A DNA stretch of 64,000 nucleotides. Origin: Candidatus Omnitrophota bacterium (GTDB taxonomy: Bacteria; Omnitrophota; Gorgyraeia; Gygaellales; Profunditerraquicolaceae). The stretch spans positions 228-64,227 of the forward strand of contig JAQUOD010000009.1 of NCBI GenBank assembly GCA_028717245.1, in the 5' to 3' direction. A program made the position numbers and the translations under genes. Each line of letters begins with the position of its first letter. Positions within the stretch are counted from its first letter, which is position 1. A model generated the notes under the pieces. The model was not told the DNA's origin and did no database searches. It worked only from the letters and a program-made list of their open reading frames with translations. Positions 3,155 to 30,427 of this stretch are shown here, piece by piece.

Positions 3155-3315
3155 TTAGCGGGTGGCTTGGGTGTTTTCGAACAGCATCTTGAAGATGCGA
3201 GCGGCCAGGGTTCACCCGCTAATACGAAGTTAGTGAGAGCGAGCAGAAACTTCAAGCGATCCGCCGTAGGCGGAGAGCGGTGCTGGGAGAAAATACCCAA
3301 GACAGGACCCGCTAA
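3155..3315 (+). repeat. palindromic repeated element, family A copy 1 (TTAGCGGGTGG...GACAGGACCCGCTAA)
   Basis: near-identical to the reverse-strand copy at 19455-19690 and shares termini with 19741-19910, 21680-21750 and 30283-30427. Confidence 0.8.
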
Positions 3316-3386
3316 TAGTTTAATCTATATCCCGAGTTGGTTTTACTTGGGATTTTTATTTTAAGGCAGTATAATTTTTTTAAAAT

Positions 3387-4355
3387 ATGTTAAAAATCGG
3401 CACCTTAAAACTCAATTCCAACCTTATCCTTGCGCCTATGGCGGGAATAAGCGATCTGCCTTTTCGCATGCTCAACCGTAAATTCGGCTGCGAGCTGGCT
3501 TTTGTAGAGATGATTAATTCCCGTTCGGTCAGCTACAAAAGCAAACGCACGCAAAAGATGCTCTCCTCAAATAAAGACGACCAGCCTCTGGGGGTGCAGC
3601 TTCTGGGTTGTGAAATAAAATTTGTGCAAAAGGCCATAGATGTGCTCAATAAATACAAATTTGACCTTTTAGATTTTAACGCTGCCTGTCCGGCAAAAAA
3701 GGTTATCCGCCGCGGCGAAGGTTCAGGCTTGCTGAAAAACCCCAAGAAATTAAGTGAGATTTTAAAGATCCTGGTGAAGAAAGCCAGGGTTCCTGTGACC
3801 GTAAAGATCCGTTCTGGCTGGGATAAGGATTGCGTAAATGCCAAAGAAGTCGCTTCCTATTGCCAGGATGCCGGGGTATCCGCGCTTTTTATCCACGGCA
3901 GGACCATGACACAGGGTTATAGCAGCGTAGTGGATTATTGCGCCATCGGGGAAGTCAAAAAGACATTAAAGATTCCTGTGATTGCCAGCGGCAATATCCT
4001 TAGCCCCCAGCTGGCCAGGAAGATGTTTGAGGAGACAGGTTGTGACGCTATCATTATTGCCAGGGGCGCTTTGGGTAATCCCTGGATATTTAAAGAGATA
4101 AACGAATTCCTGAAAAACGGAAAAATTATTGCCAGGCCTCCTGTAGAAAAGATTGTTCAGGTGATGCTTGAGCATCTGGTTGCGGTGATTGATTTTTACG
4201 GAGAGAGGAATGGCGTAGTTATTTTCCGTAAATTCTTCAGCTGGTATACCCGGGGATTCCGTAAGATCAGGCCTTTAAGAGAACTCATCAGCCGGACAAA
4301 GACGAGGCAAGAGATGCAGGAAGCTATCCAGAAATGCGTTGGCCTACAGCCATAA
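3387..4355 (+). CDS. dusB: tRNA-dihydrouridine synthase (DusB-like)
   Basis: APMAGISDLPFR N-terminus, TIM-barrel Dus motifs, 322 aa. Confidence 0.85.
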   Translation: MLKIGTLKLNSNLILAPMAGISDLPFRMLNRKFGCELAFVEMINSRSVSYKSKRTQKMLSSNKDDQPLGVQLLGCEIKFVQKAIDVLNKYKFDLLDFNAACPAKKVIRRGEGSGLLKNPKKLSEILKILVKKARVPVTVKIRSGWDKDCVNAKEVASYCQDAGVSALFIHGRTMTQGYSSVVDYCAIGEVKKTLKIPVIASGNILSPQLARKMFEETGCDAIIIARGALGNPWIFKEINEFLKNGKIIARPPVEKIVQVMLEHLVAVIDFYGERNGVVIFRKFFSWYTRGFRKIRPLRELISRTKTRQEMQEAIQKCVGLQP

Positions 4356-4364
4356 ACAAAAAAA

Positions 4365-4390
4365 CCCCCGAAATCCCGGGGGTAATTTTG
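4365..4390 (+). terminator. putative intrinsic terminator hairpin CCCCCG-loop-CGGGGG followed by T-rich run
   Basis: seen directly after dusB stop. Confidence 0.4.
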
Positions 4391-4543
4391 TAGGTGATAG
4401 GCCTATGTTAGCTTAGCGCTATCCTCGCCCACCTCCTGTTACAAGTAAAGAGTAAACGCTTATATTAAAATATGTAATATATTTTAGTAAAAATCAAGGC
4501 TAAATCAACACTTTTGAGAAAGCGTTTCCTCATAAATTCACCC

Positions 4544-4572
4544 TTGATTTATGGCTTCCCATGAGGTAAAAT
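4544..4572 (+). promoter_or_regulatory. candidate sigma70 promoter TTGATT-17-TAAAAT
   Basis: spacing 17 nt, in AT-rich 260-bp gap upstream of 4621 CDS. Confidence 0.35.
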
Positions 4573-4620
4573 AGCTTATATATGGCATGTTTTTTAAGTT
4601 ATGGCGAAAAGGAGGCAATA

Positions 4621-4959
4621 ATGCCTGAAAAAGATTTAGGTAAGACCTCAATCGGGATGAATGCGAACATTGCTGCGGTTTTAAGCTATCTATTAGGGTT
4701 TGCCAGCGGGATTATTTTTTATCTCCTGGAAAAAGAGAATAAGTTTGTGCGTTTCCATGCTATGCAATCTATAGTCACCTTTGGGTTCTTATGGGTGCTG
4801 AGCTTTGTGATTATGGTTGTGCCTTCCTTGGGCTGGGTCATTGCGCGGTTTATTTATCTGATAGAGGTCATCCTTTGGGTTATCCTTATGTTCAAGGCCT
4901 ATCAGGGCGAATATTTCAAGCTACCTGTTGCTGGAGATATAGCTGAAAAAAATTCTTAA
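4621..4959 (+). CDS. DUF4870-like small integral membrane protein
   Basis: FVRFHAMQS motif between TM helices; GGAGG SD before ATG 4621. Confidence 0.5.
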   Translation: MPEKDLGKTSIGMNANIAAVLSYLLGFASGIIFYLLEKENKFVRFHAMQSIVTFGFLWVLSFVIMVVPSLGWVIARFIYLIEVILWVILMFKAYQGEYFKLPVAGDIAEKNS

Positions 4960-4970
4960 AGGAGACTACT

Positions 4971-5291
4971 GTGGATTTTAAAGAGGCAAGAAAAGAAATC
5001 AATAGCATTAATTTTGATACGCTGCGTACGGATGATAAGGATTATCTCGAGGCCGTGCTGGTCAAGGAAGAGATAGATAAACTGAAAGAAAGGCTGAAGA
5101 AGATCTTTGGCGACCCCCAGGCTGAAATATCCCCTAAGATGGAGGATACCGTAAAAGGTTTCGGCGGAATCATGCGCGGCCAGACCCTGTATTTCTGGAA
5201 TGAGGGGCAGAGCGCATTATTTGCCATGCTCTGGCCCTGGCAGGACGGTTCTCACACCACGCTAAAGATGGGAAGAAAGAAAATAGCTTAA
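4971..5291 (+). CDS. hypothetical protein
   Basis: ORF only; GTG start. Confidence 0.3.
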   Translation: MDFKEARKEINSINFDTLRTDDKDYLEAVLVKEEIDKLKERLKKIFGDPQAEISPKMEDTVKGFGGIMRGQTLYFWNEGQSALFAMLWPWQDGSHTTLKMGRKKIA

Positions 5292-5317
5292 AGACCCCGC
5301 CCCTTCAAAATTAAAAG

Positions 5318-5794: not shown

Positions 5795-5797
5795 TCC

Positions 5798-7888: not shown

Positions 7889-7893
7889 TTTGA

Positions 7894-8478
7894 ATGTTTG
7901 AAAGTTTGAATGTTAAAAAAAGGGTGGGGAGCTTGCGTATAACTACAGGACAATATAAAGGCAGGGTAATCCGGATGCCCAAAGGTATCCGGCCGACGCA
8001 GGATAAGGTGCGTAAGGCTATCTTTGATATTTTAGGCGATATAGAGGGCTTATCATTCTTGGAGTTGTTCGCTGGCTCAGGGGCAGTCGGTTTTGAGGCT
8101 GCATCGCGGGGCGTTAAAGATTTAATCCTGGTAGAATACAACCAGGATTGCCGTCTGGCCATCAATAAGAACATAGAGTCCCTGAAGCTAAGGGCCTGTA
8201 CCTTATACCCCAAAGAGGTAGAGGTTGCTATCAAGCAGTTCCACCGGGATGGCAGGAATTTCGATATTATCTTCCTCGATCCGCCCTATTATCAGGGCCT
8301 TTCAAAAAAAACCTTGCAAACCCTATCTCTTTATGATATATTAGCGCCCGTTGGTTTAATAGTAGTGCAGCATTTTAAAAAAGACATTCTCCCGGATACG
8401 CAGGGAGAATTAACTTTATTTAAGCAATCAACTTACGGCGACACGCTATTGTCGTTTTACAGAAAAAGGGAGAGTTAA
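7894..8478 (+). CDS. rsmD: 16S rRNA (guanine966-N2)-methyltransferase RsmD
   Basis: RITTGQYKGR...IRPT N-terminus and DPPY motif. Confidence 0.8.
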   Translation: MFESLNVKKRVGSLRITTGQYKGRVIRMPKGIRPTQDKVRKAIFDILGDIEGLSFLELFAGSGAVGFEAASRGVKDLILVEYNQDCRLAINKNIESLKLRACTLYPKEVEVAIKQFHRDGRNFDIIFLDPPYYQGLSKKTLQTLSLYDILAPVGLIVVQHFKKDILPDTQGELTLFKQSTYGDTLLSFYRKRES

Positions 8479-8479
8479 G

Positions 8480-9372: not shown

Positions 9373-9407
9373 TTTAAATAATGTTTTGGTAACTAACGGA
9401 GGAAAAA

Positions 9408-9611: not shown

Positions 9612-9616
9612 AAAAT

Positions 9617-9696
9617 CGTTATAGCGTTATAGGGTTATAGCGTTATAGCGTTTGTCAACGCAAGTAACCCAATAACGCAAGTAACGCAATAACGAA
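9617..9696. repeat. inverted arrays of ~8-nt tandem repeats (CGTTATAG x4 / GCAAGTAAC-CAATAACG)
   Basis: intergenic between rpmF and plsX. Confidence 0.85.
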
Positions 9697-9699
9697 AAT

Positions 9700-11722: not shown

Positions 11723-12648
11723 TGGATAAGTCCGCTCTTTTATTTGCCGGACAGGGCGCTCAATATATCGGTATGGGAAAGGATTTATACGAATCTTTTC
11801 CTGAAAGTAAATCGGTCTTTGATAAGGCAGATGAGGTTTTGGGTTTTTCTCTTTCCCAACTCTGTTTTGAGGGGCCACAGGAAGAACTGATACGGACCCA
11901 GAATTGCCAACCCGCGATATTAACCGTGAGCGTGGCTGCATGGGAAGCCTTTAAAAATAGTGTCAAAGTGTCAGAGTGTCAAAGTGTCAGTTATGTGGCA
12001 GGTCTGAGCTTGGGCGAATATTCGGCGTTGGTAGCAGCAGAGGCAATAAGTTTTAGAGATGCCGCGTATCTGGTGAGAAAACGCGGGGAGTTTATGGAGC
12101 AAGAGGCCCAGTCCCGGGCGGGTAGTATGGCTTCTATTATAGGATTGGATATCACGGCAGTAAGAGATATCTGCCGTAAGACTAAGACAGAGTTAGCTAA
12201 TATCAATTGCCCTGGCCAAATCGTTATTTCCGGCGGTAAACCGGAAATTTCCGAAGCCCAGAGATTAGCCGAAGAAAGTGGCGCAAAAAAAGTAATCTTA
12301 TTGGAAGTAAGTGGGGCGTTCCATTCTTCTTTTATGCAGGGCGCCTCTTTAAAATTAGCCGGGGAATTGGAGAAAATTAAAATAGAGACGCCCCGGATAC
12401 CGCTGGTGAGTAATGTTACGGCTAGGCCCATGATTAATCCCGCGGAAATCAAGGATAGCTTGATTAAGCAGGTTACGGCCAGCGTCCTTTGGGAAGATTC
12501 AATGGAGTTCATTCTCTCTGAGGGTATAAATCAATTTTTTGAGTTCGGGCCAGGTAAAGTCTTAAAAGGCCTGATGCGCCGTATTGATGATAAGGCGCAG
12601 GTTGTTAATATAGAAAAGAAAGCAGATATTTTAAGTTTTAAGCCGTAA
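11719..12648 (+). CDS. fabD: malonyl CoA-ACP transacylase
   Basis: FAGQGAQ and GLSLGEYSA motifs; ATGA overlap with fabH stop. Confidence 0.9.
   Translation: MMDKSALLFAGQGAQYIGMGKDLYESFPESKSVFDKADEVLGFSLSQLCFEGPQEELIRTQNCQPAILTVSVAAWEAFKNSVKVSECQSVSYVAGLSLGEYSALVAAEAISFRDAAYLVRKRGEFMEQEAQSRAGSMASIIGLDITAVRDICRKTKTELANINCPGQIVISGGKPEISEAQRLAEESGAKKVILLEVSGAFHSSFMQGASLKLAGELEKIKIETPRIPLVSNVTARPMINPAEIKDSLIKQVTASVLWEDSMEFILSEGINQFFEFGPGKVLKGLMRRIDDKAQVVNIEKKADILSFKP
11959..11990 (+). repeat. in-frame octamer tandem repeat (AGTGTCAA/G)x4 inside fabD
   Basis: encodes SVKVSECQSVS just before GLSLGEY active site. Confidence 0.9.
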
Positions 12649-12730
12649 GTTATAAGCTTTAAGCTAAAAAATCAAAAGCACAGGGATTTTTTTAAAAAGC
12701 TTACAACTTAAAGCTTACAGCTTACAGCTG
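12641..12730. repeat. inverted arrays of TTACAGC-type heptamer repeats
   Basis: intergenic between fabD and fabG. Confidence 0.85.
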
Positions 12731-13487: not shown

Positions 13488-13607
13488 AAGACATAAGTTA
13501 TGGAGCGTAAGCGACATAACTTATGAGTCTGAACTTATCCGCCTTCGGCGGATTTAATTCGCACCTATAACTTACTCGCACTCCGTGCTCGTAAGTTATG
13601 TGCTCAT
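13488..13607. repeat. inverted short-repeat arrays (CATAAGTTATG / CATAACTTATG) plus GC hairpin
   Basis: intergenic between fabG and acpP. Confidence 0.8.
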
Positions 13608-13624
13608 TTAAGGAGGAGAAAAGA

Positions 13625-13864
13625 ATGGCAGTACAAGATAAAGTCAAGGCTATAATAGCAGAGCAGCTGGGGGTAAAACCCGAAGAAGTAACTCCTGAGG
13701 CATCGTTTATTGATGACTTGGGCGCAGATTCCTTGGACACGGTAGAGTTGGTCATGGCGTTAGAAGAGGAGTTCGGCATTGAAATATCCGACGAAGACGC
13801 GGAAAAGATCGCTACCGTAGGCGACGCAGTCAAGTATATCGAGGAAAAAGCCGGAAATAAATAA
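13625..13864 (+). CDS. acpP: acyl carrier protein
   Basis: [20 protein letters not shown] phosphopantetheine site; GGAGG SD before ATG 13625. Confidence 0.9.
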
Positions 13865-13887
13865 TTTTTAATATAGATATGTACTTT

Positions 13888-13917
13888 ATGCCCCGCCCCT
13901 TGCTTTCGGCGGGGCAT
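13888..13917 (+). terminator. GC-rich hairpin ATGCCCCGCC...GGCGGGGCAT after acpP
   Basis: 10-bp stem; weak U-tract. Confidence 0.4.
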
Positions 13918-13920
13918 TTA

Positions 13921-14012
13921 TACGTTCGCGGCCAAAAAACCGCGCCATTCATGGCGCGGATGAACAATTGAGCCGCTTCAGTATTCCGCCCAATGAACCT
14001 CGGGCTTAAGAC
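13921..14012 (+). repeat. repeated element family C copy 1 (CGCGGCCAAAAAACCGCGCCATTCATGGCGCGG...)
   Basis: similar to 50610-50708 and the reverse-strand copy at 55280-55385. Confidence 0.7.
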
Positions 14013-14039
14013 CGGGTGGGCTCCATTATCGTTAAACTT

Positions 14040-15383: not shown

Positions 15384-16676
15384 ATGGAATTTGATAATAA
15401 AATGCCTCATACTATCGCAGAAAAAATATTGATGGCTCATACCGGCAAAAAAGACATCCAGCCGGGAGAATTCGTCGAGGCCAGAGTAGACCTGGCCTTA
15501 GGCAATGATATCACCGCGCCCTTTGCTATAGAAGAATTCAGGAAATCGGGCGCAAAAAAAGTCTTTGACAATAAAAAGATAGCGCTTGTCCCTGATCATT
15601 TTGCCCCGGCCAAAGATTTAAAGAGCGCAAATCAATGCAGGATACTGGCAGATTTTGCCCGTGAACAAAAAATAAAAAATTATTTTGAAATAGGCTGTAT
15701 GGGAATTGAACATGCCCTGTTGCCGGAGATGGGTCTGGTTTCGCCCGGGGATTTAGTCATCGGCGCGGATTCCCACACCTGTACCTACGGCGCGTTAGGC
15801 GCTTTTGCCACGGGTGTCGGCTCCACGGATTTAGCCCGCGCCTTTATAGACGGTAAATGTTGGTTCAGGGCGCCGGCTACCATAAAATTCATATATAAAG
15901 GTAAGCCAAAGCCATGGGTGGCTGGTAAAGATTTAATCCTTTATACCATAGGCCAAATCGGCGTGGACGGCGCGTTAGAGAAGGTGATGGAATTTAGCGG
16001 GCCGTTGATGGGTAAATTAAGCATGGATGATAGATTTACTATGTCCAATATGGCTATTGAGGCAGGAGGAGTTACTGGTTTGATTGAACCAGATGGAATT
16101 ACGTTAAGATATATAAAAGAAGTTTCAAAGTTTAAAAGTTTAAAAGTTCCAAAGTTAAAATTTAAAAATTTGAAATCAGATAGAGATGTGCAGTATGAAA
16201 AAATATACGAATGGGACATTTCTAAATTAGAACCGCAGGTGGCCTGTCCGCATTTACCCGGTAACGTGAAAGCTGTTTCCGGCTTGGGAAAGATAAAACT
16301 TGATCAGGTGGTGATTGGCTCCTGCACTAACGGAAGGATCTCGGACTTACGGATTGCGGCTAGGCTATTAAAAGGCAAGAAAGTAAAGGCCGGATTAAGG
16401 CTGATTATTATTCCCGCAACCCAAAAGATTTATCTTCAGGCGGTAAAAGAAGGCCTGGCGGAAATATTTGTGGAAGCAGGCGGCGTCTTTTCTACCCCTA
16501 CCTGCGGCCCGTGCCTCGGCGGGCATATGGGGATACTTACAGAAGGGGAGACATGCCTGGCCACTACCAACAGGAATTTCATCGGCAGGATGGGCAGCCC
16601 CAAGTCATTCGTTTATCTGGCTAGCCCGGCAGTAGCCGCAGCTTCGGCAATAAAAGGGAGAATATCTCATCCTTAA
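15384..16676 (+). CDS. leuC: 3-isopropylmalate dehydratase large subunit (short, archaeal-type LeuC)
   Basis: aconitase-family Cys ligands (CTNGR, TCGPCLG), 430 aa. Confidence 0.85.
   Translation: MEFDNKMPHTIAEKILMAHTGKKDIQPGEFVEARVDLALGNDITAPFAIEEFRKSGAKKVFDNKKIALVPDHFAPAKDLKSANQCRILADFAREQKIKNYFEIGCMGIEHALLPEMGLVSPGDLVIGADSHTCTYGALGAFATGVGSTDLARAFIDGKCWFRAPATIKFIYKGKPKPWVAGKDLILYTIGQIGVDGALEKVMEFSGPLMGKLSMDDRFTMSNMAIEAGGVTGLIEPDGITLRYIKEVSKFKSLKVPKLKFKNLKSDRDVQYEKIYEWDISKLEPQVACPHLPGNVKAVSGLGKIKLDQVVIGSCTNGRISDLRIAARLLKGKKVKAGLRLIIIPATQKIYLQAVKEGLAEIFVEAGGVFSTPTCGPCLGGHMGILTEGETCLATTNRNFIGRMGSPKSFVYLASPAVAAASAIKGRISHP
16121..16176 (+). repeat. in-frame octamer tandem repeat (AGTTTMAA)x7 inside leuC
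   Basis: encodes VSKFKSLKVPKLKFKNLKS. Confidence 0.9.
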
Positions 16677-19432: not shown

Positions 19433-19454
19433 CCCTAAAATGAATCTGTTGCTT

Positions 19455-19690
19455 TTCTCGCTTGTAAGGTAGTGGGGCCTGTCAAGGCTATTTTCTCACA
19501 GCACCGCTCGATTTTCCCCACCGAGGAAAATCTCGTCCTTCGGCAAGCTCAGGACGAGCCCTGAGCGAAGTCGAATGGGCTCGCTTGAAGTTTCTGCTCG
19601 CTCTCACTGACTACGTATTAGCGGGTGAGCCCTGGCCGCTCGCATAAACTACATGCTGTTCGAAAACAGCCTTGCCACCCACTAAACCCT
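19455..19690 (-). repeat. family A element copy 2 (reverse orientation, full length)
   Basis: reverse complement aligns with 3155-3315 over its whole length. Confidence 0.8.
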
Positions 19691-19740
19691 TACGTTAGCT
19701 AGAAACCGCCAGAGTCATTTGTAAAGTAATAGATTCATTT

Positions 19741-19910
19741 TTAGCGGGTGACGAGGCATGTTTTGAGCAGCATCTTGAAAATTCGAGCGGGCACGGTTCG
19801 TTTCGTCATTTAGTTGTTTCCGAGAGCGAGAATTTTCACCGAAGTGCAGCGAGCCACGCTGGGGCGAGCAAACGGTGCAGCGAAAAATATGCCTCGGCAG
19901 GACCCGCTAA
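19741..19910 (+). repeat. family A element copy 3
   Basis: termini TTAGCGGGTGACGAGGCAT...ATGCCTCGGCAGGACCCGCTAA with compensatory stem changes. Confidence 0.8.
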
Positions 19911-19930: not shown

Positions 19931-20707
19931 ATGCGTAATATCAAATTAACTATAGAGTACGCCGGCACTAAATACGCCGGATGGCAGGTCCAGGGCAGAA
20001 GGCACAGGACTATCCAGGGAACGTTAGAAAAAGCCCTCCAGAAAATACTTCGGGAAAAAATACATTTAATCGGTTCAGGCAGGACTGATGCCGGGGTGCA
20101 TGCCTTTGGACAAGTAGCTAACTTTAAGACCGATTCCGGCGTGCCTGTTTGGAAAATACAAAAGGCCTTAAATGCGAACTTGCCAGGCGATATTGTAATA
20201 ACTAGCGTAGAGGACGTAAATTTTGATTTTCATAGCCGCTTTGACGCCAAATCAAAAGTATACCGTTACACTGTTTTAAACAGGGCTTATCCCCCGGCAA
20301 TATTGAAAGATAAAGTTTATTTTTATCCTTACCCTTTAGATGTGGAGTTAATGCGTAAAGAAACAAAGTCTCTTTTAGGCCGGCATGATTTTAAATCATT
20401 CTGTGCCAGCTCAAGCAGCGTTAAAGACACCATACGCACAATAAAAAATATAACTATTAAAAAATCGGCTTACAGCTTACAGCTTACAGTTTACAGTTTA
20501 AAAAAGCCCTCTTTGATTACCATTGAGATAGAGGCAGACGGCTTTCTCTACAATATGGTCAGGAATATTACAGGTACGCTGCTTGAGATAGGCAGGGGTA
20601 AACTTCCCGCAGGCAGCCTTAAGAGGATATTACTGGCAAAAAACAGAAGGCTCGCCGGCCCTACGGCCCCTGCCCAAGGATTATGCCTACTTGAGGTTAA
20701 GTATTGA
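19931..20707 (+). CDS. truA: tRNA pseudouridine(38-40) synthase TruA
   Basis: catalytic GSGRTDAGVHA motif. Confidence 0.85.
   Translation: MRNIKLTIEYAGTKYAGWQVQGRRHRTIQGTLEKALQKILREKIHLIGSGRTDAGVHAFGQVANFKTDSGVPVWKIQKALNANLPGDIVITSVEDVNFDFHSRFDAKSKVYRYTVLNRAYPPAILKDKVYFYPYPLDVELMRKETKSLLGRHDFKSFCASSSSVKDTIRTIKNITIKKSAYSLQLTVYSLKKPSLITIEIEADGFLYNMVRNITGTLLEIGRGKLPAGSLKRILLAKNRRLAGPTAPAQGLCLLEVKY
20469..20500 (+). repeat. in-frame heptamer tandem repeat (TTACAGC)x4-5 inside truA
   Basis: encodes AYSLQLTVYSL. Confidence 0.9.
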
Positions 20708-21189: not shown

Positions 21190-21195
21190 TTAGAT

Positions 21196-21591
21196 ATGGA
21201 TGAAGTTATCAAGCATACGGCGATAGGCAGACGTAAAGAAGCAACCGCCAGGATTTGGCTTTTACCCGGTAACGGGAATATTATAGTGAATGAGAAGCCG
21301 TACGATAAGTATTTTCTCCGGGAGACAGACCGGATTATCATAAAACAACCTTTGGAAATGACCAATACCTTAACTAAATACGATATCAAAGCTAATATCA
21401 CAGGCGGCGGTCTTACCGGACAGGCAGGCGCTTTCCGGCAGGGCCTTGCCCGCGTCTTAGTTCTGGCTGAACCGGAATTGAAGGATGCATTGCGTAAGCA
21501 GGGTTTTCTTACCCGCGACCCGCGCATGAAGGAACGCAAGAAGTATGGCCAGAAGGGCGCGCGTAAACGCTTCCAGTGGACAAAGAGGTAG
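21196..21591 (+). CDS. rpsI: 30S ribosomal protein S9
   Basis: conserved C-terminus ...[11 protein letters not shown]. Confidence 0.9.
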
Positions 21592-21637
21592 GTTATGAGT
21601 TAGAAAGTTAAAAAGTTCAAATGTTCAAATGTGAAAG

Positions 21638-21664
21638 TCCCGCTGGAAGAGCGGGATTTTTTAT
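21638..21664 (+). terminator. intrinsic terminator TCCCGCTGGAAGAGCGGGA + T6
   Basis: 7-bp GC stem with U-tract after rpsI. Confidence 0.7.
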
Positions 21665-21679
21665 TGATGGTCTTATCGT

Positions 21680-21750
21680 TTTTCTCGCTTACGAGGTAGC
21701 GGGTCCTGTCCCGCCATGAATCGTGGCGGGCCACCCGCTAAATTCTTACG
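21680..21750 (-). repeat. family A element copy 4 (short form, reverse orientation)
   Basis: termini AGCGGGTGG / GACAGGACCCGCT joined by a small hairpin. Confidence 0.7.
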
Positions 21751-21865
21751 TCAGCTCGAAAAACGCCAAGCCCATTTTGTTTAGTGATATCTCGACGAGA
21801 AAATGCTTGACTACGCTGAGTTTTTATCTTAATATGAGCGTATAAAAAAATAAGAGGAGAGGCGC

Positions 21866-24024: not shown

Positions 24025-24035
24025 GGAAGAGGAAA

Positions 24036-24890
24036 ATGGAAGAAGCAATCAAGAAAGCGGATGTATTGATTGAGGCATTGCCTTATATCAAGAGGTTCCA
24101 TAAGAAGGCGATTGTCATTAAATACGGCGGGAGCATCCTGGGAGAAGAAAAAATCAGGAGAGGAGTCCTGGAGGATATTGTTTTTTTAAGTTTTATGGGT
24201 TTAAAGCCGGTATTGGTACATGGGGGAGGCCCGAATATAAGCGAGCGTATTCGTTCAGAAGGGAAGAAGGCGGAATTCGTAGACGGTATACGCGTCACCG
24301 ATGCAAAGACACTGACTGTTGTGGAAGAGGAGTTGCAGAAATTAAACGATATTATTGTCAATGAGATAACTGAATTAGGCGCAAACGCCGTGGGTTTGAA
24401 CGGCCAGGATAAAAAGATAATCCAGGTAAAGAAGAAGAAAGCAGAGGTAGACCTGGGGTTAGTCGGCCATATTACTGAAATAAATGCCGAACCGATACTG
24501 GAAGAATTTAAGTCTGATACAGTAGTCGTTGTGCTGCCGATGGGCAAAGGCCAGGATAAAAAGGCGTACAATGTCAATGCCGATGAGGCAGCCGCCAATA
24601 TTGCCGCTGCCCTTAAGGCGGAGAAATTAGTTTTGCTTACTAATGTAAAAGGCATTATGCGTAATCCTGATGACCCGAATTCTTTTTTATCTACTTTAAC
24701 GGTAGATGAGGCAAAGGGGTTAATTGAAAATAACATTGTCCAGCAGGGGATGATCCCCAAAGTGATGGCCTGCGTTGAGGCATTAGAGAAGGGCGTAAAA
24801 AAGACGCATATTATTGATGCGCGCACGCCGCACGGTTTGCTTTTAGAGATATTTACGGATATGGGAGTAGGGACGGAGATTGTAAGATAG
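24036..24890 (+). CDS. argB: acetylglutamate kinase
   Basis: VIKYGGS and VLVHGGGP motifs. Confidence 0.9.
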   Translation: MEEAIKKADVLIEALPYIKRFHKKAIVIKYGGSILGEEKIRRGVLEDIVFLSFMGLKPVLVHGGGPNISERIRSEGKKAEFVDGIRVTDAKTLTVVEEELQKLNDIIVNEITELGANAVGLNGQDKKIIQVKKKKAEVDLGLVGHITEINAEPILEEFKSDTVVVVLPMGKGQDKKAYNVNADEAAANIAAALKAEKLVLLTNVKGIMRNPDDPNSFLSTLTVDEAKGLIENNIVQQGMIPKVMACVEALEKGVKKTHIIDARTPHGLLLEIFTDMGVGTEIVR

Positions 24891-24925
24891 TTTAAATGTT
24901 AGAATGTTAAAATGTTTAAAAGTTT

Positions 24926-26170
24926 ATGAAAAAAGAAGAGATATTGCAGGCATATAAAGATTACATCATGCCGACCTATACCAAGGTTCCTTTGATTTTT
25001 GTCAAAGGCAAAGGCAGCCGGCTCTGGGATATCCATAATAAAGCTTATCTGGATTTTTTCCCGGGTTGGGGAGTAGGTAACCTGGGGCATTGCCATCCTA
25101 AGGTGGTAGCGGCAGTGCGGGACCAGATTTCCAAATTGATATTTATACCTAATAATTATTACCATATTGCCCAGGCAAAATTAGCCAAGGAGATAGTCTA
25201 TTGGACTCACCCCGCTAAGGTTTTTTTCTGCAATTCCGGGGCAGAGGCAAATGAGGCAGCCATAAAGTTTAGCCGGAAATTCGGCACTTCGACTCAGCCT
25301 TCGGCTTCGCTCAGTGCCGATGGTGAGCGTAGTCGAACCATCGGAAACGGCAGGTATGAAATTATTACTTTCGAAAACTCATTCCACGGCAGGACCCTGG
25401 CTGCTTTGGCTGCTACCGGACAGAAAAAATACCAGAACGGGTTTGCGCCTCTACCGGAAGGTTTTAAGACAGTAAAATTTAACGATATTGAGGAAGTCAA
25501 AAAGGCCATAACCGAAAAGACAGTAGGCATAATGCTGGAGTTGATCCAGGGGGAAGGCGGGATTAATGTCGCCAGCCGGGATTTTGTTTCGGCGTTAAGT
25601 AAGATTTGCGCTGAGAAGAACCTGCTTTTAATCGTAGATGAAGTGCAGACCGGTATCGGCAGGACCGGGAAATTATTCTGCTATCAGCATTACGGCATAA
25701 CCCCGGATATAGTGACGCTGGCCAAGTCCTTAGGCGGAGGCTTGCCTATCGGCGTGATGTTAGTCAAGAAAGAGATTGCCGATACCTTAGGGCCAGGGAT
25801 GCATGCCTCTACTTTTGGGGGAGGGCCGGTAATCTGCAAAGCAGCATTGGCAGTATTCAGGGCCATACAAAAGGAAAAGATGCTTACCAATGCCTCCAGG
25901 ATGGGAGAATATTTATTTACGCGACTGAATGATTTAAAAAATAAGTATCCGGCGATAAAGGAAACAAGGGGTTTGGGCCTGATGGCCGGCGTAGAATTAA
26001 ATATTGAGGGGAAAGCCATCGTGGAAAAATGCATAGAAAATGGGCTTTTGATTAACTGCACTCACGATAAAGTTTTGCGGCTTATGCCGGCATTAAATAT
26101 CAGCAAAAAAGAAATTGATAAAGCGATTAAAATACTGGATAGTGTGTTTGAAAGTTTTTCCGCTTTATAA
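24926..26170 (+). CDS. argD: acetylornithine aminotransferase
   Basis: class III aminotransferase with PLP-lysine in TLAKSLGGG. Confidence 0.85.
   Translation: MKKEEILQAYKDYIMPTYTKVPLIFVKGKGSRLWDIHNKAYLDFFPGWGVGNLGHCHPKVVAAVRDQISKLIFIPNNYYHIAQAKLAKEIVYWTHPAKVFFCNSGAEANEAAIKFSRKFGTSTQPSASLSADGERSRTIGNGRYEIITFENSFHGRTLAALAATGQKKYQNGFAPLPEGFKTVKFNDIEEVKKAITEKTVGIMLELIQGEGGINVASRDFVSALSKICAEKNLLLIVDEVQTGIGRTGKLFCYQHYGITPDIVTLAKSLGGGLPIGVMLVKKEIADTLGPGMHASTFGGGPVICKAALAVFRAIQKEKMLTNASRMGEYLFTRLNDLKNKYPAIKETRGLGLMAGVELNIEGKAIVEKCIENGLLINCTHDKVLRLMPALNISKKEIDKAIKILDSVFESFSAL
25283..25340 (+). repeat. palindromic mini-insertion inside argD (hairpins AGCCTTCGGCT and CCGATGGTGAGCGTAGTCGAACCATCGG)
   Basis: encodes ~20 extra residues TSTQPSASLSADGERSRTIGNG between ARKF and YEIITF. 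Confidence 0.7.
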
Positions 26171-26274
26171 TCTAATTGCGCTAGCGGGATCCCGCTTTAG
26201 TATAAGAAGGTCAAGCGGGAAAATGTTTGAATGTTGTAATGTTAGAATGTTTTAATGTTTAAAAGAAGGATGCT

Positions 26275-27189: not shown

Positions 27190-27256
27190 TTTTATAAAAC
27201 GTTAAATAAGAATAGGCTAAGGATTTAAAGACGCGTTAATAAGAAAGGAAAAACAG

Positions 27257-27682: not shown

Positions 27683-27699
27683 GAAATAGGAGTTTTTAA

Positions 27700-28890
27700 A
27701 TGACGGATAAGAAAAAGATAGTTCTTGCTTATTCCGGGGGGCTAGATACCTCCTGCGCAGTAAGGTGGCTTAAGGATCAAGGATACGAAGTAATCTGTTT
27801 TGCCGCGGATTTAGGCCAGGGTTTAGGAGGGGGTGAGGATTTTGCGGCAATAGAGGCACGGGCCTTAGCTGCCGGCGCTTCCAAAATATATATTAAAGAC
27901 CTTCAGGATGAATTTGTAGAGGATTTTGTTATCCCGGCTTTAAAGGCAGGCGCTATTTATGAAGGTAAATACCTGCTCGCTACAGCATTGGGCAGGCCTT
28001 TGATTGCCAAATATCTGGTAGAAATAGCGCATAAAGAAAAGGCCGAGGCCGTAGCCCATGGTTGTACCGGTAAAGGTAATGATCAAGTCAGGTTTGAGGT
28101 GACTACGGGAATATTAGACCCAAAATTAGAGATTGTCGCTCCGGTGAGGGCCTGGGATTTTAAGTCGCGGGAAGAAGAAATAGAATACGCGCATACGTAT
28201 AATATCCCTATAGATGTCAGCAAAAAGAAGCCTTACAGCATTGATAGGAATATCTGGGGTATTAGCATTGAAGCGGGCATCCTGGAAAATCTGGAGCAGG
28301 AACCGCCTGAGGACGCTTACCTGATTACCAAGAGCCCGACGGGTGCCTCTACATACCCTAAATATATAGAAATTTCTTTTGAAAAAGGCGTGCCTAAAAA
28401 AATAGACGGCAAGATTTATAAACCGAAGAATTTAATCAACCATCTGAATGAGATAGGCGGGCTTTACGGCGTCGGCAGGAGTGACCTGGTTGAAAATAGA
28501 TTAGTAGGCATTAAATCCAGGGAGATTTACGAAGCGCCTGCGGCGACCATATTGCATATTGCCCATAAAGAATTAGAGAGTATAGTTTTAGACAGGGAAC
28601 TAGCGCATTTTAAAGAGATAGTTTCGCTTAAATATGCGGAGCTGGTTTATTATGGGCTCTGGTATTCTCCTTTAAAAGAGGCGCTGGATGGCTTTGTGGA
28701 TTCTACGCAAAAGTATGCCAGCGGTTCGATAAAAATGAAATTATTCAAGGGTAACTGTGTGGCTGTGGGTAGAAAGTCACATCATTCGTTGTATAAAAAG
28801 GAATTGAGCACTTACGGCAAAGAAGACAAATTCGACCAGAAATTAGCCGAAGGGTTTATTAAGATATGGGGAATGCCTTATAGGAAATAA
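27700..28890 (+). CDS. argG: argininosuccinate synthase
   Basis: AYSGGLDTS P-loop. Confidence 0.9.
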   Translation: MTDKKKIVLAYSGGLDTSCAVRWLKDQGYEVICFAADLGQGLGGGEDFAAIEARALAAGASKIYIKDLQDEFVEDFVIPALKAGAIYEGKYLLATALGRPLIAKYLVEIAHKEKAEAVAHGCTGKGNDQVRFEVTTGILDPKLEIVAPVRAWDFKSREEEIEYAHTYNIPIDVSKKKPYSIDRNIWGISIEAGILENLEQEPPEDAYLITKSPTGASTYPKYIEISFEKGVPKKIDGKIYKPKNLINHLNEIGGLYGVGRSDLVENRLVGIKSREIYEAPAATILHIAHKELESIVLDRELAHFKEIVSLKYAELVYYGLWYSPLKEALDGFVDSTQKYASGSIKMKLFKGNCVAVGRKSHHSLYKKELSTYGKEDKFDQKLAEGFIKIWGMPYRK

Positions 28891-28933
28891 GCCGTAAGCT
28901 GTAAGCCGTAAGTTATAAGATCAAGGAGATGAA

Positions 28934-30277
28934 ATGGCGAAGAAATTATGGGGCGGAAGATTCAGCAAAAAAACAGACCCATTAGTAGAGGAGTTTACTA
29001 AGTCGATACAATTTGACTATAAGCTAGCTAACTGGGATTTAGTTGGTTCAAAATTACATGTAATTATATTAGAAAAAGCCGGATTGTTAACGTCAACTGA
29101 GGCATTAAAACTAAAAGAGGGATTGGGGGCTATTCATGCTCAGCTAAGAAATAAGGAGTTTAAAAAGACAGATAGAAACGAAGATATCCATACTTATATT
29201 CAGAATGCACTGCAAAATAGAATTGGAGATTTGGCTTTGAAACTACATACTGCAAGATCCAGGAATGATCAAGTTGTATTCGCAACTAAATTATACTGTA
29301 GAGAATGCATTCTTTGTTCTTGTAAACTCATCTTGGAGCTTACAAAAGAGATTATAAGTTTAGCAGAGAAAAATTCGGATATTGTTATTCCTGGGTTTAC
29401 ACATCTACAGCATGCTCAGCCGGTATTATTGCAGGATTACTTAGAAGCATATGAAGACATGCTTATCAGGGATACAGAGAGGTTAACATCTATTGCTAAG
29501 AATATGAAGGCTATTATGGGCGCAGGAGCGCTTGCAGGTACGCCTATTAGTTCCAATGAATATAAAATTAAGGCAGGAGAACAATTAAAAAAGATAGGCA
29601 TTGATTTTATAGAAGCGATTGAAAATTCACTTGATTCGGTCAGCGATAGGGATTTTGTTATTGAAACCATCAGTGCTCTATCGATCCTTGCAATGCACCT
29701 ATCTAGATTAGCTGAAGATTTAATTATCTGGTCAACAAAAGAATTTGATTTTGTGGAAATCAATGAATCTTTCTGCACCGGTAGTTCGCTGATGCCACAG
29801 AAGAAAAATCCTGACGTATTAGAACTAATTAGGGGCTATGCTGGCAGGTTGTATGGTAATTTAGTGAGCGTATTAACGATGATGAAAGGTCTGCCTCTGA
29901 CATACAATAGAGATATGCAGTTAGATAAAGAACCGCTATTTAATTCTTTTGAAATAGTCTCCAGCGAATTGAAAGTATTAAGCGGTTTAATTAAAACGTT
30001 GAAATTCAATAAGCCCAAGATAGAAGAGCACCTGAAAGATGAAGGCCTCTATGCAACTGACATTGTGTATTACCTTGTAGATAAGAAGATTCCTTTTAAG
30101 GAAGCGCATACTATTATAGGAAAACTAATAAAATATTCGCTTGGTAATGAGATCAAAATTAAAGATATGCCGGAGAATTTATTAAGGAAGTTTTCCAATA
30201 AATTTGTTAAGAAAGAAATAGTTAAGTTATTTGATCCTTTGGTTTCGGTAAAGTCTAAGAAGTCAATTAAGAGGTAA
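28934..30277 (+). CDS. argH: argininosuccinate lyase (markedly AT-rich relative to neighbours)
   Basis: fumarase/lyase signature GSSLMPQKKNPD; WGGRF N-terminus. Confidence 0.9.
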   Translation: MAKKLWGGRFSKKTDPLVEEFTKSIQFDYKLANWDLVGSKLHVIILEKAGLLTSTEALKLKEGLGAIHAQLRNKEFKKTDRNEDIHTYIQNALQNRIGDLALKLHTARSRNDQVVFATKLYCRECILCSCKLILELTKEIISLAEKNSDIVIPGFTHLQHAQPVLLQDYLEAYEDMLIRDTERLTSIAKNMKAIMGAGALAGTPISSNEYKIKAGEQLKKIGIDFIEAIENSLDSVSDRDFVIETISALSILAMHLSRLAEDLIIWSTKEFDFVEINESFCTGSSLMPQKKNPDVLELIRGYAGRLYGNLVSVLTMMKGLPLTYNRDMQLDKEPLFNSFEIVSSELKVLSGLIKTLKFNKPKIEEHLKDEGLYATDIVYYLVDKKIPFKEAHTIIGKLIKYSLGNEIKIKDMPENLLRKFSNKFVKKEIVKLFDPLVSVKSKKSIKR

Positions 30278-30282
30278 TATTT

Positions 30283-30427
30283 TTAGCGGGTGGCTTGGTT
30301 TGATTTCGAGCAGCTTGAAAGGGGACCCCGCGAGTGGGTGTGGGCGAGGAAAATTTGACGAGCACACACCCTAAAAGCAGGGGATAATTTGAATCCCTGC
30401 GAGAAAGCAAGGCAAGGTAGCCGCTAA
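30283..30427 (+). repeat. family A element copy 5
   Basis: starts TTAGCGGGTGGCTTGG, ends CCGCTAA. Confidence 0.7.

Follow-up and report, generated by a model that had tools for sequence, protein, structure and literature searches.

Family A: a phylum-wide family of folded intergenic elements in the Omnitrophota

Introduction

The ERIC (IRU) sequences were reportedly described by Wilson and Sharp, in 2006, as conserved in sequence across species while differing in chromosomal position, and as occurring in size variants. Cross-species sequence conservation and differing chromosomal positions are likewise exhibited by Family A, an undescribed, phylum-wide Omnitrophota family of ~170-nt folded elements, five copies of which (c1 to c5) lie in the 64,000-nt stretch of DNA analysed here (the window). 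ERIC elements, imperfect palindromes of ~127 bp from Enterobacteria and Vibrio, are also intergenic, found in either orientation and frequently co-transcribed, and they form a long hairpin (PMC3184786). The size variants of both families derive from internal insertions and deletions, a transposase is known for neither, and ERIC in RNA form can alter mRNA decay (PMC3184786). The two nevertheless belong to different phyla and share no sequence similarity, and the TA flanks and target duplications of ERIC-type copies (PMC3184786) are both absent in Family A, which adds a three-way-junction core containing three tandem G·A modules and falls into separate micro, mini and long classes.

The RAYT-mobilised REP and REPIN sequences resemble Family A in being extragenic, non-autonomous and predicted to form hairpins in single-stranded DNA or mRNA, in persisting in lineages with most copies lacking an adjacent transposase and with no classical target duplication, and in their inverted doublets (PMC3116915), the counterparts of which are the head-to-head pairs c2/c3, L016/L029, L008 and L002 (fused). 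A REP, however, is a short palindrome and a REPIN a doublet of REPs, whereas a single Family A unit of 42-217 nt pairs end to end around a complex core; REP and REPIN copies are near-identical within a genome, while those of Family A are 60-84% identical. No RAYT gene was seen in ~290 kb of loci (loci, rather than whole genomes).

The Correia (NEMIS) elements, MITEs of 104-157 bp found in Neisseria, come in long and short forms distinguished by an internal segment, and are intergenic and co-transcribed, with terminal repeats pairing into a long RNA stem (PMC3184786), all of which is similar to Family A. Features of MITEs in general are short terminal inverted repeats, small size, lack of an ORF, a hairpin, and intergenic placement in both orientations (PMC3184786). 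Correia elements differ in their 26-bp inverted repeats, TA duplication, promoters and IHF sites, whereas Family A has no duplication, invariant ends of only 9-10 bp and a covarying interior.

Recognition of integron attC sites depends on structure more than on sequence and is strand-specific, and their length is set by a variable terminal structure, which varies from a 3-nt loop to a branched domain. By analogy, Family A may be viewed as built along similar lines: structure over sequence, a terminal helix followed by an asymmetric spacer left unpaired, then a second helix containing extrahelical, bulged or wobble positions, a terminal structure whose variation determines the length, and strand-specificity. 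Yet the attC cores (RYYYAAC…GTTRRRY) are absent from Family A, the ends of which are TTAGCGGG…CCCGCTAA, no integrase is found nearby, and copies in mixed orientation, unlike those of cassette arrays, are flanked by syntenic housekeeping genes rather than cassettes.

Copies in the window and across the phylum

A covariance model applied at every position of the window (cmsearch, filters off, 64 kb) recovers exactly five copies (Table 1) and nothing else above noise. These are the copies reported in a first-pass annotation, whose ranges hold for c1, c3 and c5; those of c2 and c4 are now narrowed to their cores, since the wider ranges took in an outer helix, P0. With filters off, the c2 match spans 19473-19681 (-) at 132.1 bits. 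Chance is excluded by the excess of TTAGCGGGTG at one mismatch or fewer (12 hits versus 3.6 expected, equalled in 0 of 100 shuffles), together with the folding z-scores of the window copies (-4 to -6.5) and their covariance-model E-values (1e-8 to 1e-36).

Table 1. Coordinates of Family A features in the window
Feature	Positions	Strand	Evidence or sequence	MFE (kcal/mol); z
c1, long form, 161 nt	3155-3315	+	cmsearch 154.7 bits, E 2e-36	-74.7; -6.5
c1 P1	3155-3163/3307-3315	+	model alignment	
c1 internal loop	GG 3164-3165 / ACAGG 3302-3306	+	model alignment	
c1 P2	3166-3178/3289-3301	+	model alignment	
c1 tandem G·A	3179-3180/3287-3288	+	model alignment	
c1 P3	3181-3187/3280-3286	+	model alignment	
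c1 P4	3191-3202/3239-3250	+	model alignment	
c1 P5	3211-3237	+	model alignment	
c1 P6 including base	3256-3278	+	model alignment	
P0 3' strand around c2	19451-19468	-	…CTTACAAGC-GA-GAAAAGC	
c2, extended form, 217 nt (core)	19469-19685	-	cmsearch 153 and 132 bits	
P0 5' strand around c2	19686-19712	-	CTGGCGGTTTC-TA-GCTAACGTAAGGGT	
c3, long form, 170 nt	19741-19910	+	cmsearch 141.2 bits	-69.5; -4.2
P0 3' strand around c4	21677-21695	-	CTCGTAAGC-GA-GAAAAACG	
c4, micro form, 46 nt	21696-21741	-	cmsearch 38.1 bits, E 6e-8, filters off	-27.3; -5.4
P0 5' strand around c4	21742-21768	-	TTGGCGTTTTTC-GA-GCTGACGTAAGAAT	
c5, degenerate long form, 145 nt	30283-30427	+	cmsearch 47.5 bits	-61.2; -4.95

The termini, first described as common to all copies, are exact in c1 only. 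Those of c2 (TTAGTGGGTGG...GACAGGCCCCACTAC) carry a compensated change from C-G to U-A on both sides of the terminal helix P1, c3 has the variant TTAGCGGGTGA...GGCAGGACCCGCTAA, c4 terminates in ...CTAC at its 3' side, and the 3' end of c5 is degenerate (...AAGGTAGCCGCTAA). The c1 copy begins 17 nt past the stop codon of ppiB (Pro_isomerase), and directly 3' of it is an intrinsic terminator hairpin (3326-3346, T-run to ~3355). The pair c2 and c3, correctly annotated as head-to-head, fills the 498-nt asd-truA spacer with 55 nt between the two copies; c2 is antisense to the flanking genes, and c3 is sense to them, its 3' end being located 20 nt ahead of the truA start codon. The core of c2 is the same as that of c1 (88% identity across 108 nt), with an extra 48-nt foreign hairpin (19532-19579) between J4/6 and P6. 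The small c4 copy, which has a 42-nt counterpart (L014:3113-3154), is composed of P1, the GG/ACAGG loop and a GC-rich capping hairpin (CCCGCCA-cgattca-TGGCGGG), and is flanked by the rpsI terminator (21637-21654, T-run to ~21661) and the conserved argC promoter (21807-21835). The argH-lysA spacer is filled by c5, with the argH stop 5 nt before and the lysA start 14 nt after it; the earlier placement of every copy at an operon end is thus only partly right, as c5 lies inside the arg/lys gene string. The adjoining argH is xenologous: its identity to that of the closest relatives is 45%, compared to 75-89% for all other genes.

The two P0 strands around c2 pair with each other and repeat the helix/tandem-GA/helix module of P2-P3, the 5' strand lying within the c2-c3 spacer. 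The same shell encloses c4, where the strands also pair (CGTTTTTC-GA-GC…), as well as L019-878, L042-162, L016-24 and L022-5267.

Pattern scans and the covariance model, the latter suggested in the first-pass annotation, revealed the family across the phylum: ~60 further copies in ~50 loci, nearly all of them from Omnitrophota (for model R1, 84 hits across 46 sources). No match was found in Rfam, in collections of viral contigs, phage, plasmids and E. coli, or by blastn in 5,426 E. coli genomes. Mean identity within the family is 73%, and copies sharing one contig are at the same level (60-84%). Besides this phylum-wide span, the three-way-junction core, the size classes, the lack of target-site duplication and the presence or absence of copies at orthologous junctions are new relative to the annotation.

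Fold and covariation

The 169-nt consensus consists of the invariant helix P1, the asymmetric loop GG/ACAGG, P2-P3, and a three-way junction with P4-P5 and P6. The ends pair as a P1 of 9-10 bp (U-UUAGCGGGU / ACCCGCUAA-A), which together with the loop forms an invariant handle for different cargoes: the micro form (42-46 nt) carries a GC hairpin, the mini form (66-72 nt) P2-P3 with GNRA-like caps, and the long form (~170 nt) the full core P2-P6. Across 42 full-length copies from 35 sources, double-sided changes occur at 35 of 53 pairs, and paired cells amount to 95.2%, versus 80.7% in shuffles (reached by 0 of 500) and 31-49% in slid controls. Covariation and conserved ends, the persistence of which in a larger copy set had been chosen beforehand as a refutation test, are therefore retained; the second-stem covariation first seen in the window is correct and includes a conserved G·U, and the figures support a structured RNA or MITE-like element over a random duplicate.

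The fold is strand-specific and selected on one defined strand, with 87 G·U/U·G versus only 13 A·C/C·A. Three tandem G·A/A·G modules are found in 39, 41 and 32 of the 42 copies, two copies swap the tandem G·A for U-A/A-U or G-C/C-G, and in c3 the G·A pair adjoining P2 is an A18·G294 variant. Two helix ends have a conserved U·G, and the junction nucleotides of the core are invariant. With these features, and with its G·A to A·G swap, the elaborate core resembles a functional RNA more closely than it does any single-stranded-DNA recombination site known. It favours, as does the strand-specific G·U excess, a host-functional structured RNA, which might be a small RNA present in multiple copies, a ribonucleoprotein scaffold, a ribozyme, or an element in operon spacers acting in cis on processing or stability; duplication and loss would then create the repeat-like distribution, and RNA-level selection would keep the fold in place. 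The toleration of peripheral insertions in P5/P6 around an intact core (c2, L037, L040, L047) is in line with such a role. We still consider a host RNA rather unlikely: Rfam holds no match, micro and mini forms are widespread although they lack the whole core, and c5 has decayed to 47 bits beside intact neighbours.

Placement and flanks

All copies are strictly intergenic and their orientation is near random (31 sense and 24 antisense, n=55). For the antisense copies, both neighbours run in the opposite direction and scores are as high as for sense copies, and many have a spacer of 1-35 nt on the upstream side, which makes a sense RNA of its own for each copy unlikely. Also against a host RNA, a sigma-70-like promoter was found for neither c2 nor c4, and the neighbouring genes (tmk/holB, arg/lys genes, ppiB, truA, ferredoxins) have no function in common. 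Sense copies, on the other hand, are located 5-50 nt from the adjacent genes with no terminator between them and should be co-transcribed, and their ends 5-20 nt ahead of start codons speak in favour of a host RNA.

The flanks also bear on a possible origin as a classical MITE of the DDE-transposase type, whose parent insertion sequence would have TTAGCGGGTGG inverted repeats. The perfect terminal inverted repeat of 9-10 bp, the small size (<220 bp), the lack of an ORF, the hairpin and the intergenic placement in both orientations are all expected of such an element, and the ends can be read as TA…TA in most copies. The target-site duplications to be looked for at the termini were, however, absent at every length from 2 to 5 nt (6 of 50 copies at k=2, chance level), and the supposed TA is lost in TTTGCGGG…CCCGCAAA and shifted in TTTACGGG…CCCGTAAA, both of which covary as base pairs. 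Strand-specific G·U and G·A patterns would be unexpected for duplex repeats read by a protein, coding inserts are lacking from every copy, and the only orphan ends are short relics. A DDE-transposase origin is the least probable of those considered here. No known family is matched, a known IS-derived MITE being the other refutation named in the first-pass annotation, and the recurrent neighbours (148 flanking ORFs) include no transposase, recombinase or reverse-transcriptase family.

Turnover at gene junctions

At four gene junctions, some genomes have a copy where their relatives show a clean empty site, although the genomes in every such comparison are 75-90% identical in protein sequence, so that exact insertion boundaries are unreadable. 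In L050 the asd-truA spacer measures 59 nt, versus 498 nt in the window. At argH-lysA, four relatives are empty (in L048 the genes are separated by 16 nt, in L047, L049 and L050 they overlap), while L003 has an intact copy (145 bits) in place of the decayed c5. The AIRS-AbpE gap is 1 nt in L058, versus a 170-nt copy in L018, L041, L054 and L055. Between rpsI and argC lies c4 (-) in the window but a long (+) copy in L047; L049 has a different hairpin there, and in L050 the gap is empty. Seven lysA-centred loci (~125 kb) have one copy in total, versus four in the corresponding 12-kb part of the window. Such clean absences, and genomes that are almost copy-free, further weaken the case for a host RNA.

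Turnover also occurs at single sites. Upstream of tmk, where the 5' sequences of the gene are 89% identical, L010 has a long, L017 a mini and L014 a micro form with differing P2 sequences, such that the same P1 ends enclose different interiors. Between L009 and L018, the orthologous flanks are 70% identical in plus/plus orientation and the element is 90% identical on the opposite strand, lying 14 nt from the start codon in both. Elements can resemble one another more than their flanks do: those of L011, L020 and L027 are 89-95% identical in unrelated flanks. Truncated, decayed, nested and chimaeric copies (c5, L001, L004, L002, L005) are relics of mobile DNA; in L002 the 5' domain is inverted between the terminal TTAGCGGGTG and an internal CACCCGCTAA.

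The in-place inversion with identical boundaries, the inverted L002 domain, the differing tmk interiors, the position of c5 exactly at the 3' end of the xenologous argH, and the attC-parallel build suggested above could be read as signs of a site-specific recombination or inversion module (integron attC-like or inverton). The folded or inverted-repeat handle would then be the crossover site, and a recombinase would exchange, invert or capture the DNA adjoining it, the elements thus bounding the exchanged segments. This is doubtful to a high degree, given the absence of attC cores, the mixed orientation, the syntenic housekeeping neighbours and the lack of an integrase or invertase among recurrent neighbours; the single xenolog boundary and the single in-place inversion are each otherwise explicable.

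Copies of Family A are thus gained, lost, replaced and inverted at gene junctions, and are dispensable and mobile. Of the RNA-or-MITE alternative initially offered, the mobile nature is thereby shown, while the folded strand that matters may be either RNA or DNA. As the copies come and go between genes, the family is best interpreted, with a probability of roughly 0.55, as a non-autonomous, structure-dependent mobile repeat specific to Omnitrophota and recognised as a folded single strand, rather than as a gene-specific regulator. Counting against this mobile repeat, besides the RNA-like core noted above, neither a mobilising enzyme nor a donor copy, an excision product or a recent burst came to light, and the 60-84% within-contig identity is unlike that of typical MITE or REPIN populations.

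An enzyme acting in trans would presumably move the element by reading the folded single strand via its P1/loop handle. One candidate is an HUH-type or tyrosine-recombinase-type enzyme on single-stranded DNA, for which REP/REPIN, IS200/IS605 ends and integron attC sites provide precedents; an RNA intermediate seems less likely, and a DDE transposase on duplex inverted repeats is unlikely. Once co-transcribed, the RNA rod of a sense copy (>22 bp) may affect mRNA processing or stability.

Elements are conserved well above their flanking genes (90% versus 70%), which speaks for a host RNA, and the differences between the orthologous copies of the close strains L018 and L041 (97% identical) are all structure-neutral, one being a double change from GA/GA to UA/UA. 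Structure-neutral and compensatory differences between orthologous copies are again in favour of a host RNA, and those of L018 and L041, which count against the mobile reading, suggest either gene conversion or constraint that acts in place. Also against it, the tmk junction is occupied in five loci, perhaps through retention rather than re-insertion.

Copies of the repeat in the window

Family A, a folded intergenic repeat of ~170 nt, can be read directly at all five places at which the first-pass annotation had located it, and a search of the whole 64 kb with all filters off, using the covariance model of the family (R1), returned exactly these five copies (c1 to c5 in the table), the best score elsewhere being 11.8 bits, which is noise. 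The places had thus been given correctly, while the boundaries of c2 and c4 were slightly wide, with an outer helix included. The termini quoted for every copy are exact for c1 only and occur as variants in the remaining ones, the variant of c2 being a compensated C-G to U-A change within the terminal helix (P1); the covariation of the second stem between copies had been quoted correctly. Allowing at most one mismatch, TTAGCGGGTG occurs 12 times in the window vs 3.6 expected, a number reached by none of 100 shuffles, and the folding of c1 to c5 against their own shuffles gives z-scores of -4.0 to -6.5. The genes of the window are exclusively plus-strand housekeeping genes.

Coordinates of Family A copies, size classes, junctions and neighbouring repeats (window positions unless preceded by a handle, L001 to L058, for a locus outside the window)
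Feature	Position or locus	Strand	Details
c1	3155-3315	+	R1 154.7 bits
c2	19469-19685	-	R1 132-153 bits
c3	19741-19910	+	R1 141.2 bits
c4	21696-21741	-	R1 38.1 bits
c5	30283-30427	+	R1 47.5 bits
Micro form	c4; L014:3113		42-46 nt; P1, loop and GC hairpin
Mini form	L006, L008, L013, L017, L022, L023, L031		66-72 nt; P1 to P3, caps are GUGA/GUAA/GUCA-type loops
Long form	c1, c3, most copies		161-175 nt; full core
Extended form	c2, L037, L040, L047		194-217 nt; long form enlarged by other hairpins within P5, P6 or P3
P0 5' strand	19686-19712; 21742-21768		CTGGCGGTTTTCGAGC
asd-truA junction	window; L050		498 nt with c2 and c3 in window; 59 nt in L050
argH-lysA junction	window; L003; L047, L049, L050; L048		c5 in window; L003 has an intact copy; 14-nt gene overlap in L047, L049, L050; 16-nt gap in L048
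rpsI terminator to argC promoter	window; L047; L049; L050		c4 (-) in window; long (+) copy with foreign hairpin in L047; unrelated hairpin in L049; ~16 nt in L050
argC promoter block	21795-21835; L047:2003-2045; L049:2008-2050; L050:2128-2170		CGACGAGAAAATGCTTGACT-N17-TAATAT
8-mer arrays, group 1	12700-12730, 20469-20493, 32373-32407, 42580-42612, 60431-60468; rc 28888-28920
8-mer arrays, group 2	7890-7920, 16125-16151, 21584-21631, 24883-24930, 26218-26265
8-mer arrays, group 3	11953-11989, 45007-45045; rc 39205-39286
Second repeat family	50601-50716	+	116 nt
Second repeat family	55274-55389	-	116 nt
Second repeat family	13917-14020	+	partial
Other hairpin families			ATAACTTACG…CGTAAGTTAT; CCCTGCCTGCC…GGCAGGCAGGG; …CGTCCTGAG…GAAGGACGA…; GGGACAGTCCCC…TTTCTAAT…GATATCTGCGG
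Other hairpin sites	13490-13600; L049:1860-1950; L057:3700-3990; L008:2660-2900; insertions in c2 (19532-19579), L040, L047
Other hairpin sites in copy flanks	L011, L019, L031, L042, L043

Distribution and size classes

The 5' third of the element was expressed as a degenerate pattern and used to scan three collections, about one match being expected by chance at such information content. One genome from each of 185,579 species gave 11 loci, which by MAG label belong to Omnitrophota (eight), Planctomycetales (two) and Phycisphaerae (one, a truncated copy), and metagenome contigs gave 34; viral contigs, scanned with three patterns (5' half, mini form and 3' half), gave zero. One of the matches, L025, looks like a chance one. 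The matched loci have a common architecture of 165-175 nt, and 34 full-length copies were aligned (A3) and turned into R1, a covariance model of the kind that the first-pass annotation had proposed. Searched over the window and 45 loci, it made 84 matches, corresponding to ~58 distinct copies that include the five of the window, many second or third copies on one contig, and shorter forms. Rfam 15 at the gathering threshold returned for the whole window only a tRNA at 59184, and a permissive search (E up to 10) with four copies produced chance-level hits only (E of at least 0.03, none spanning the full element). Likewise, blastn against phage, plasmid and E. coli genome collections found no match to Family A, and the searchable literature on structured or noncoding RNA, repeats and inverted repeats of Omnitrophota held nothing relevant.

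The copies range from 42 to 217 nt, contain only spurious ORFs, and fall into four size classes, which share P1 and the adjoining loop only. Several antisense copies (c2, c4, L019-878, L042-162, L016-24 and L022-5267) are enclosed by an additional outer helix, P0, that repeats a helix/GA/helix module. The 5' strand of P0 has a GG-N10-GC spacing resembling a sigma-54 -24/-12 promoter and lies 11-12 nt ahead of the first base of the antisense copies, also in L019, L042, L016, L022, L009 and L028; the helix/GA/helix module may simply produce this spacing by coincidence. Some mini and micro copies are surrounded by a shell of ~28 nt with inverted repeats AATTTTGCTGCGGGTTT…AAACCCGCAGCAAAATT.

A conserved three-way junction

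The consensus of 169 positions reads UUAGCGGGUGGCuuGGnugguUUCGAGCAGCAU…GCGAGCGGnCAnGG-[P5]-GAGAGCGAGca…AAGCGAG-[P6]-CGAGCGGUGCUGCGAGAAA…CCaaGACAGGACCCGCUAA. When 53 hand-refined pairs were tested on a model alignment of 42 sequences, 95.2% of the cells were paired vs 80.7% with partners shuffled (none of 500 shuffles was as high), the value falling to 31-49% when partners were slid by 1-3 columns, and double-sided change was seen in 35 of the 53 pairs. The arms of P1, TTAGCGGGT/ACCCGCTAA, pair in 96% of cells over 9 bp plus a flanking T/A pair (T at -1 in 44 and A at +1 in 37 of 50 copies), and their covariation extends to the last base (TTTACGGG…CCCGTAAA, TTTGCGGG…CCCGCAAA, GTAGCGGG…CCCGCTAC). 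P1 is followed by an invariant asymmetric loop, GG / ACAGG, whose inner G·A pair becomes A·G in 9/42 copies, and then by P2, a helix of 13 bp with a conserved mid-helix G·U or bulge and double-sided change in 8 of the 12 counted pairs. From P2, helix P3 leads to a three-way junction carrying P4 (7/7 pairs covarying), the variable hairpin P5 (4/5) and P6 (8/9, with the loop UCGNUGG).

A tandem G·A/A·G with G-C pairs on either side, C-GA-G / C-GA-G, recurs as a module at three places, namely the P2/P3 boundary (39/42 copies), within P4 (41/42) and the base of P6 (32/42), and is swapped in two copies for U-A/A-U or G-C/C-G. Energy alone cannot tell the strands apart, because both fold about equally well thermodynamically. 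The fold nevertheless belongs to one strand: G·U/U·G cells number 87 vs 13 for A·C/C·A, P3 (32/42) and P5 (34/42) end in a conserved U·G, and on the complementary strand the G·A modules become C·U mismatches. Copies on the same contig are 60-84% identical, against a family mean of 73%, yet 95% pairing is kept, and orthologous copies of close strains differ only in structure-neutral ways, compensatory double changes included. The fold is thus under strong, strand-specific selection.

Several readings of individual motifs were discarded. On inspection, the GG/ACAGG loop has the wrong bulge polarity for a K-turn and lacks a G·A pair towards P1; a hammerhead-like reading of CUGCGAGAAA is ruled out by the absence of a helix II between the motifs; and the likeness of UUAGCG to a retron msr was judged coincidental, since the element occurs in many copies with no reverse transcriptase near them.

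Genomic setting

All of the ~55 copies placed are intergenic, often nearly filling the spacer between ORFs (c5 leaves 5 nt to argH and 14 nt to lysA), and the flanking genes are co-directional in every case. The folded strand is sense to these genes in 31 copies and antisense in 24 (20 vs 10 where both neighbours are known), with no significant bias, and antisense copies have R1 scores equal to those of sense copies. Such mixed orientation, together with heterogeneous neighbours and junctions that are empty in relatives, excluded a riboswitch or cis-regulatory leader. An intrinsic terminator was also rejected, as the 3' flank is A-rich and the hairpin is followed by no U-run; true terminators, separate from the elements, adjoin c1 and c4.

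The target-site duplications that had been suggested as a check at the termini were absent: identical flanking k-mers occur at chance level, in 6, 2, 1 and 1 of 50 copies for k = 2, 3, 4 and 5, and an apparent TA target was dismissed as well, the TA belonging to the covarying helix. This bears on the possibility of a classical DDE-type MITE. A strict MITE is a small element with terminal inverted repeats, a flanking direct-repeat duplication, a long hairpin, no transposase gene and a parent insertion sequence (PMC3184786). Family A has the terminal inverted repeats, the small size, the long hairpin and the lack of a transposase gene, but it fails on the duplication, so that a MITE of this type is very improbable.

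The Pfam families that recur in the 148 flanking ORFs are Thymidylate_kin (tmk), DNA_pol3_delta2 (holB), PSP1, Fer4, TPR and TatD, all housekeeping; no transposase, integrase or reverse transcriptase recurred, the RAYT (Y1 HUH) family was not among the top neighbour families at these loci, and ~350 kb of loci contained no paired ends around a coding insert. The only transposase candidate in the window itself, ORF 13498-13917 (-), proved spurious, having no Pfam hit and overlapping acpP on the opposite strand.

Occupied, empty and altered junctions

Seven syntenic loci with the order rplM-rpsI-argCJBDFGH-lysA-dapFAB… were reached through homologues of LysA; together they contain a single Family A copy in ~125 kb. 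The closest relatives of the window are L047 and L050 (~82% LysA identity; other L047 proteins are 75-89% identical), and the junctions that are occupied in the window are empty or differently occupied in these loci (table). At the rpsI-argC gap, every repeat insertion lies between the rpsI terminator and the promoter block upstream of argC, which is strongly conserved in four genomes. The argH of the window (28934-30277) and of L003 is of another version than that of L047-L049: the window gene is only 45% identical to the latter and 63% to that of L003, whereas the genes around it are each 75-89% identical to their L047 counterparts, which marks it as a xenologous gene replacement whose 3' boundary falls exactly at c5.

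A second junction, between AIRS and AbpE, was followed from the UPF0280/AbpE gene beside L018. It is empty in L058 (TAA-A-ATG), holds an antisense copy of 170 nt in L018, L041, L024, L054 and L055 and a sense copy in L009, and in L057 is occupied by another repeat, together with a micro-like remnant. Between L009 and L018 both flanks are orthologous, on the same strand and 70% identical, while the elements are 90% identical on opposite strands, at the same distance of 14 nt to the start codon. Such a switch of orientation at one site could result from inversion between the P1 arms, from a head-to-head doublet that, we infer, could lose alternate members via recombination between its direct repeats, or from repeated site-specific insertion. 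Long, mini and micro forms differing in P2 sequence lie upstream of tmk in three genomes whose tmk 5' sequences are 89% identical, and L011, L020 and L027 have elements 89-95% identical within unrelated flanks. Decayed copies are represented by c5, the truncated L001 and L004, and the orphan 3' ends in L005 and L030. Comparison of empty with filled sites gave no insertion boundaries, the nearest relatives having ~82-92% protein identity and the filled sites an additional 14-15 nt of unrelated flank.

The empty sites, the occupancy and orientation that vary at one and the same junction, the uneven abundance among relatives, the relics and nesting, and the greater identity of elements than of their surroundings establish that Family A is dispensable and insertional, a behaviour that rules out a gene-specific cis-regulator.

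In L002 (3081-3215), a chimaera joins the 3' two-thirds of the element, in reverse complement, at TTAGCGGGTGA to the forward 5' part, corresponding to a 5'-domain inversion between the terminal TTAGCGGGTG and an internal CACCCGCTAA (P5 5' strand), which mimics the 3' end of the element in most long copies.

Mode of propagation

Dispensable, insertional behaviour and strong selection on the fold are most simply fitted together by a non-autonomous element that propagates via a folded single strand and is moved in trans, a reading given a probability of roughly 55%. Propagation would require the folded single strand, P1 and the loop would form the recognised handle, and the mover would be an enzyme acting in trans and leaving no duplication. 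REP/REPIN-RAYT, IS200/IS605 ends and integron attC sites follow the same mobility logic. An RNA intermediate is favoured by the elaborate junction, by the U·G pairs that are conserved and by the GNRA-like caps, single-stranded DNA by random orientation and in-place inversion.

The quality of the core and a constraint that apparently acts in place would also suit a structured RNA of the host, an interpretation considered rather unlikely; a set of independently transcribed RNA genes is itself unlikely, given that the space beside antisense copies is often too short for a promoter and that a search for sigma-70 promoters found none for antisense c2 and c4.

An attC- or inverton-like recombination module is suggested by the architecture, by the xenologous boundary at argH, by the inversion in place and by the chimaera L002. 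Core sites of attC, R''/R', read RYYYAAC … GTTRRRY. The ends of Family A are TTAGCGGG…CCCGCTAA, read on both strands, with no R''/R' core, and unlike cassette arrays beside intI the copies have mixed orientation, syntenic housekeeping neighbours and no recurrent integrase. With both the core-site and the orientation tests failed, such a module is improbable.

There is likewise a slender chance that the long form is itself mobile as a functional RNA (a ribozyme, or else an RNA that serves a recombination machine as subunit or guide) or as an RNA-directed recombination module. The handle and the junction with its three tandem G·A modules would then catalyse or direct the insertion of the element itself at gene junctions, as well as its inversion and replacement there, and the mini and micro forms would be parasites retaining the handle only.

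Compared with known systems, Family A works most like the structured intergenic repeats of the ERIC, REPIN and Correia type (PMC3184786, PMC3116915). REPINs consist of two short inverted REP palindromes, are extragenic, and have a cognate RAYT (Y1 HUH) gene flanked by repeats (PMC3116915). Family A is extragenic too, but one unit pairs end to end, and whole-unit head-to-head doublets occur at 4-5 loci only. As it has no sequence relation to ERIC, REPIN or Correia repeats, no duplication and no REP-doublet unit, it belongs to none of them. Unlike these, it is built on a covarying core with a three-way junction and three tandem G·A modules, combines an invariant handle with exchangeable cargo, and is conserved phylum-wide, yet positionally polymorphic.

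Significance and associated repeats

Omnitrophota are uncultivated, and R1 offers a ready covariance model, with very strong comparative support, for this ~170-nt fold. Family A unites properties that are usually separate, namely a conserved three-way-junction core like that of a functional RNA and a behaviour like that of mobile DNA, being gained, lost and inverted and occurring in size classes, though neither a target duplication nor a linked transposase accompanies it. Should a structure-specific enzyme use the handle as its substrate, a hitherto unrecognized single-strand transposition or recombination system would exist in Omnitrophota; if the core is an RNA machine, it represents a new RNA class. 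For annotation, the copies yield spurious ORFs and should be masked in Omnitrophota MAGs. They also mark rearrangement hot spots, with synteny breaks, the xenologous argH boundary and junctions dense with other hairpin repeats.

The junctions of Family A are also used by at least four further families of hairpins or inverted repeats, which even insert into its copies (table). Tandem arrays of 8-mers (GCTTACAG, GTTTRAAW, AGTGTCAA), with 3-5 units each, lie in intergenic spacers, usually just before start codons, and in L001 an array of this type adjoins a truncated Family A copy. The two full copies of the 116-nt family are 95% identical and form an inverted pair around a secretin-gspE-gspF block; on the strand of the copy at 55274 the repeat has an RBS, a 24-aa ORF (MKLHELKPAVSWSEILSGQTPSAP) and a terminator-like hairpin, and the copy at 50601 overlaps the called start of the secretin ORF. 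Four tandem pseudopilin genes of 447 nt occupy 55458-57233, and two further ones have the same N-terminal methylation motif. All real-looking ORFs of >100 aa lie on the plus strand throughout 1-64000.
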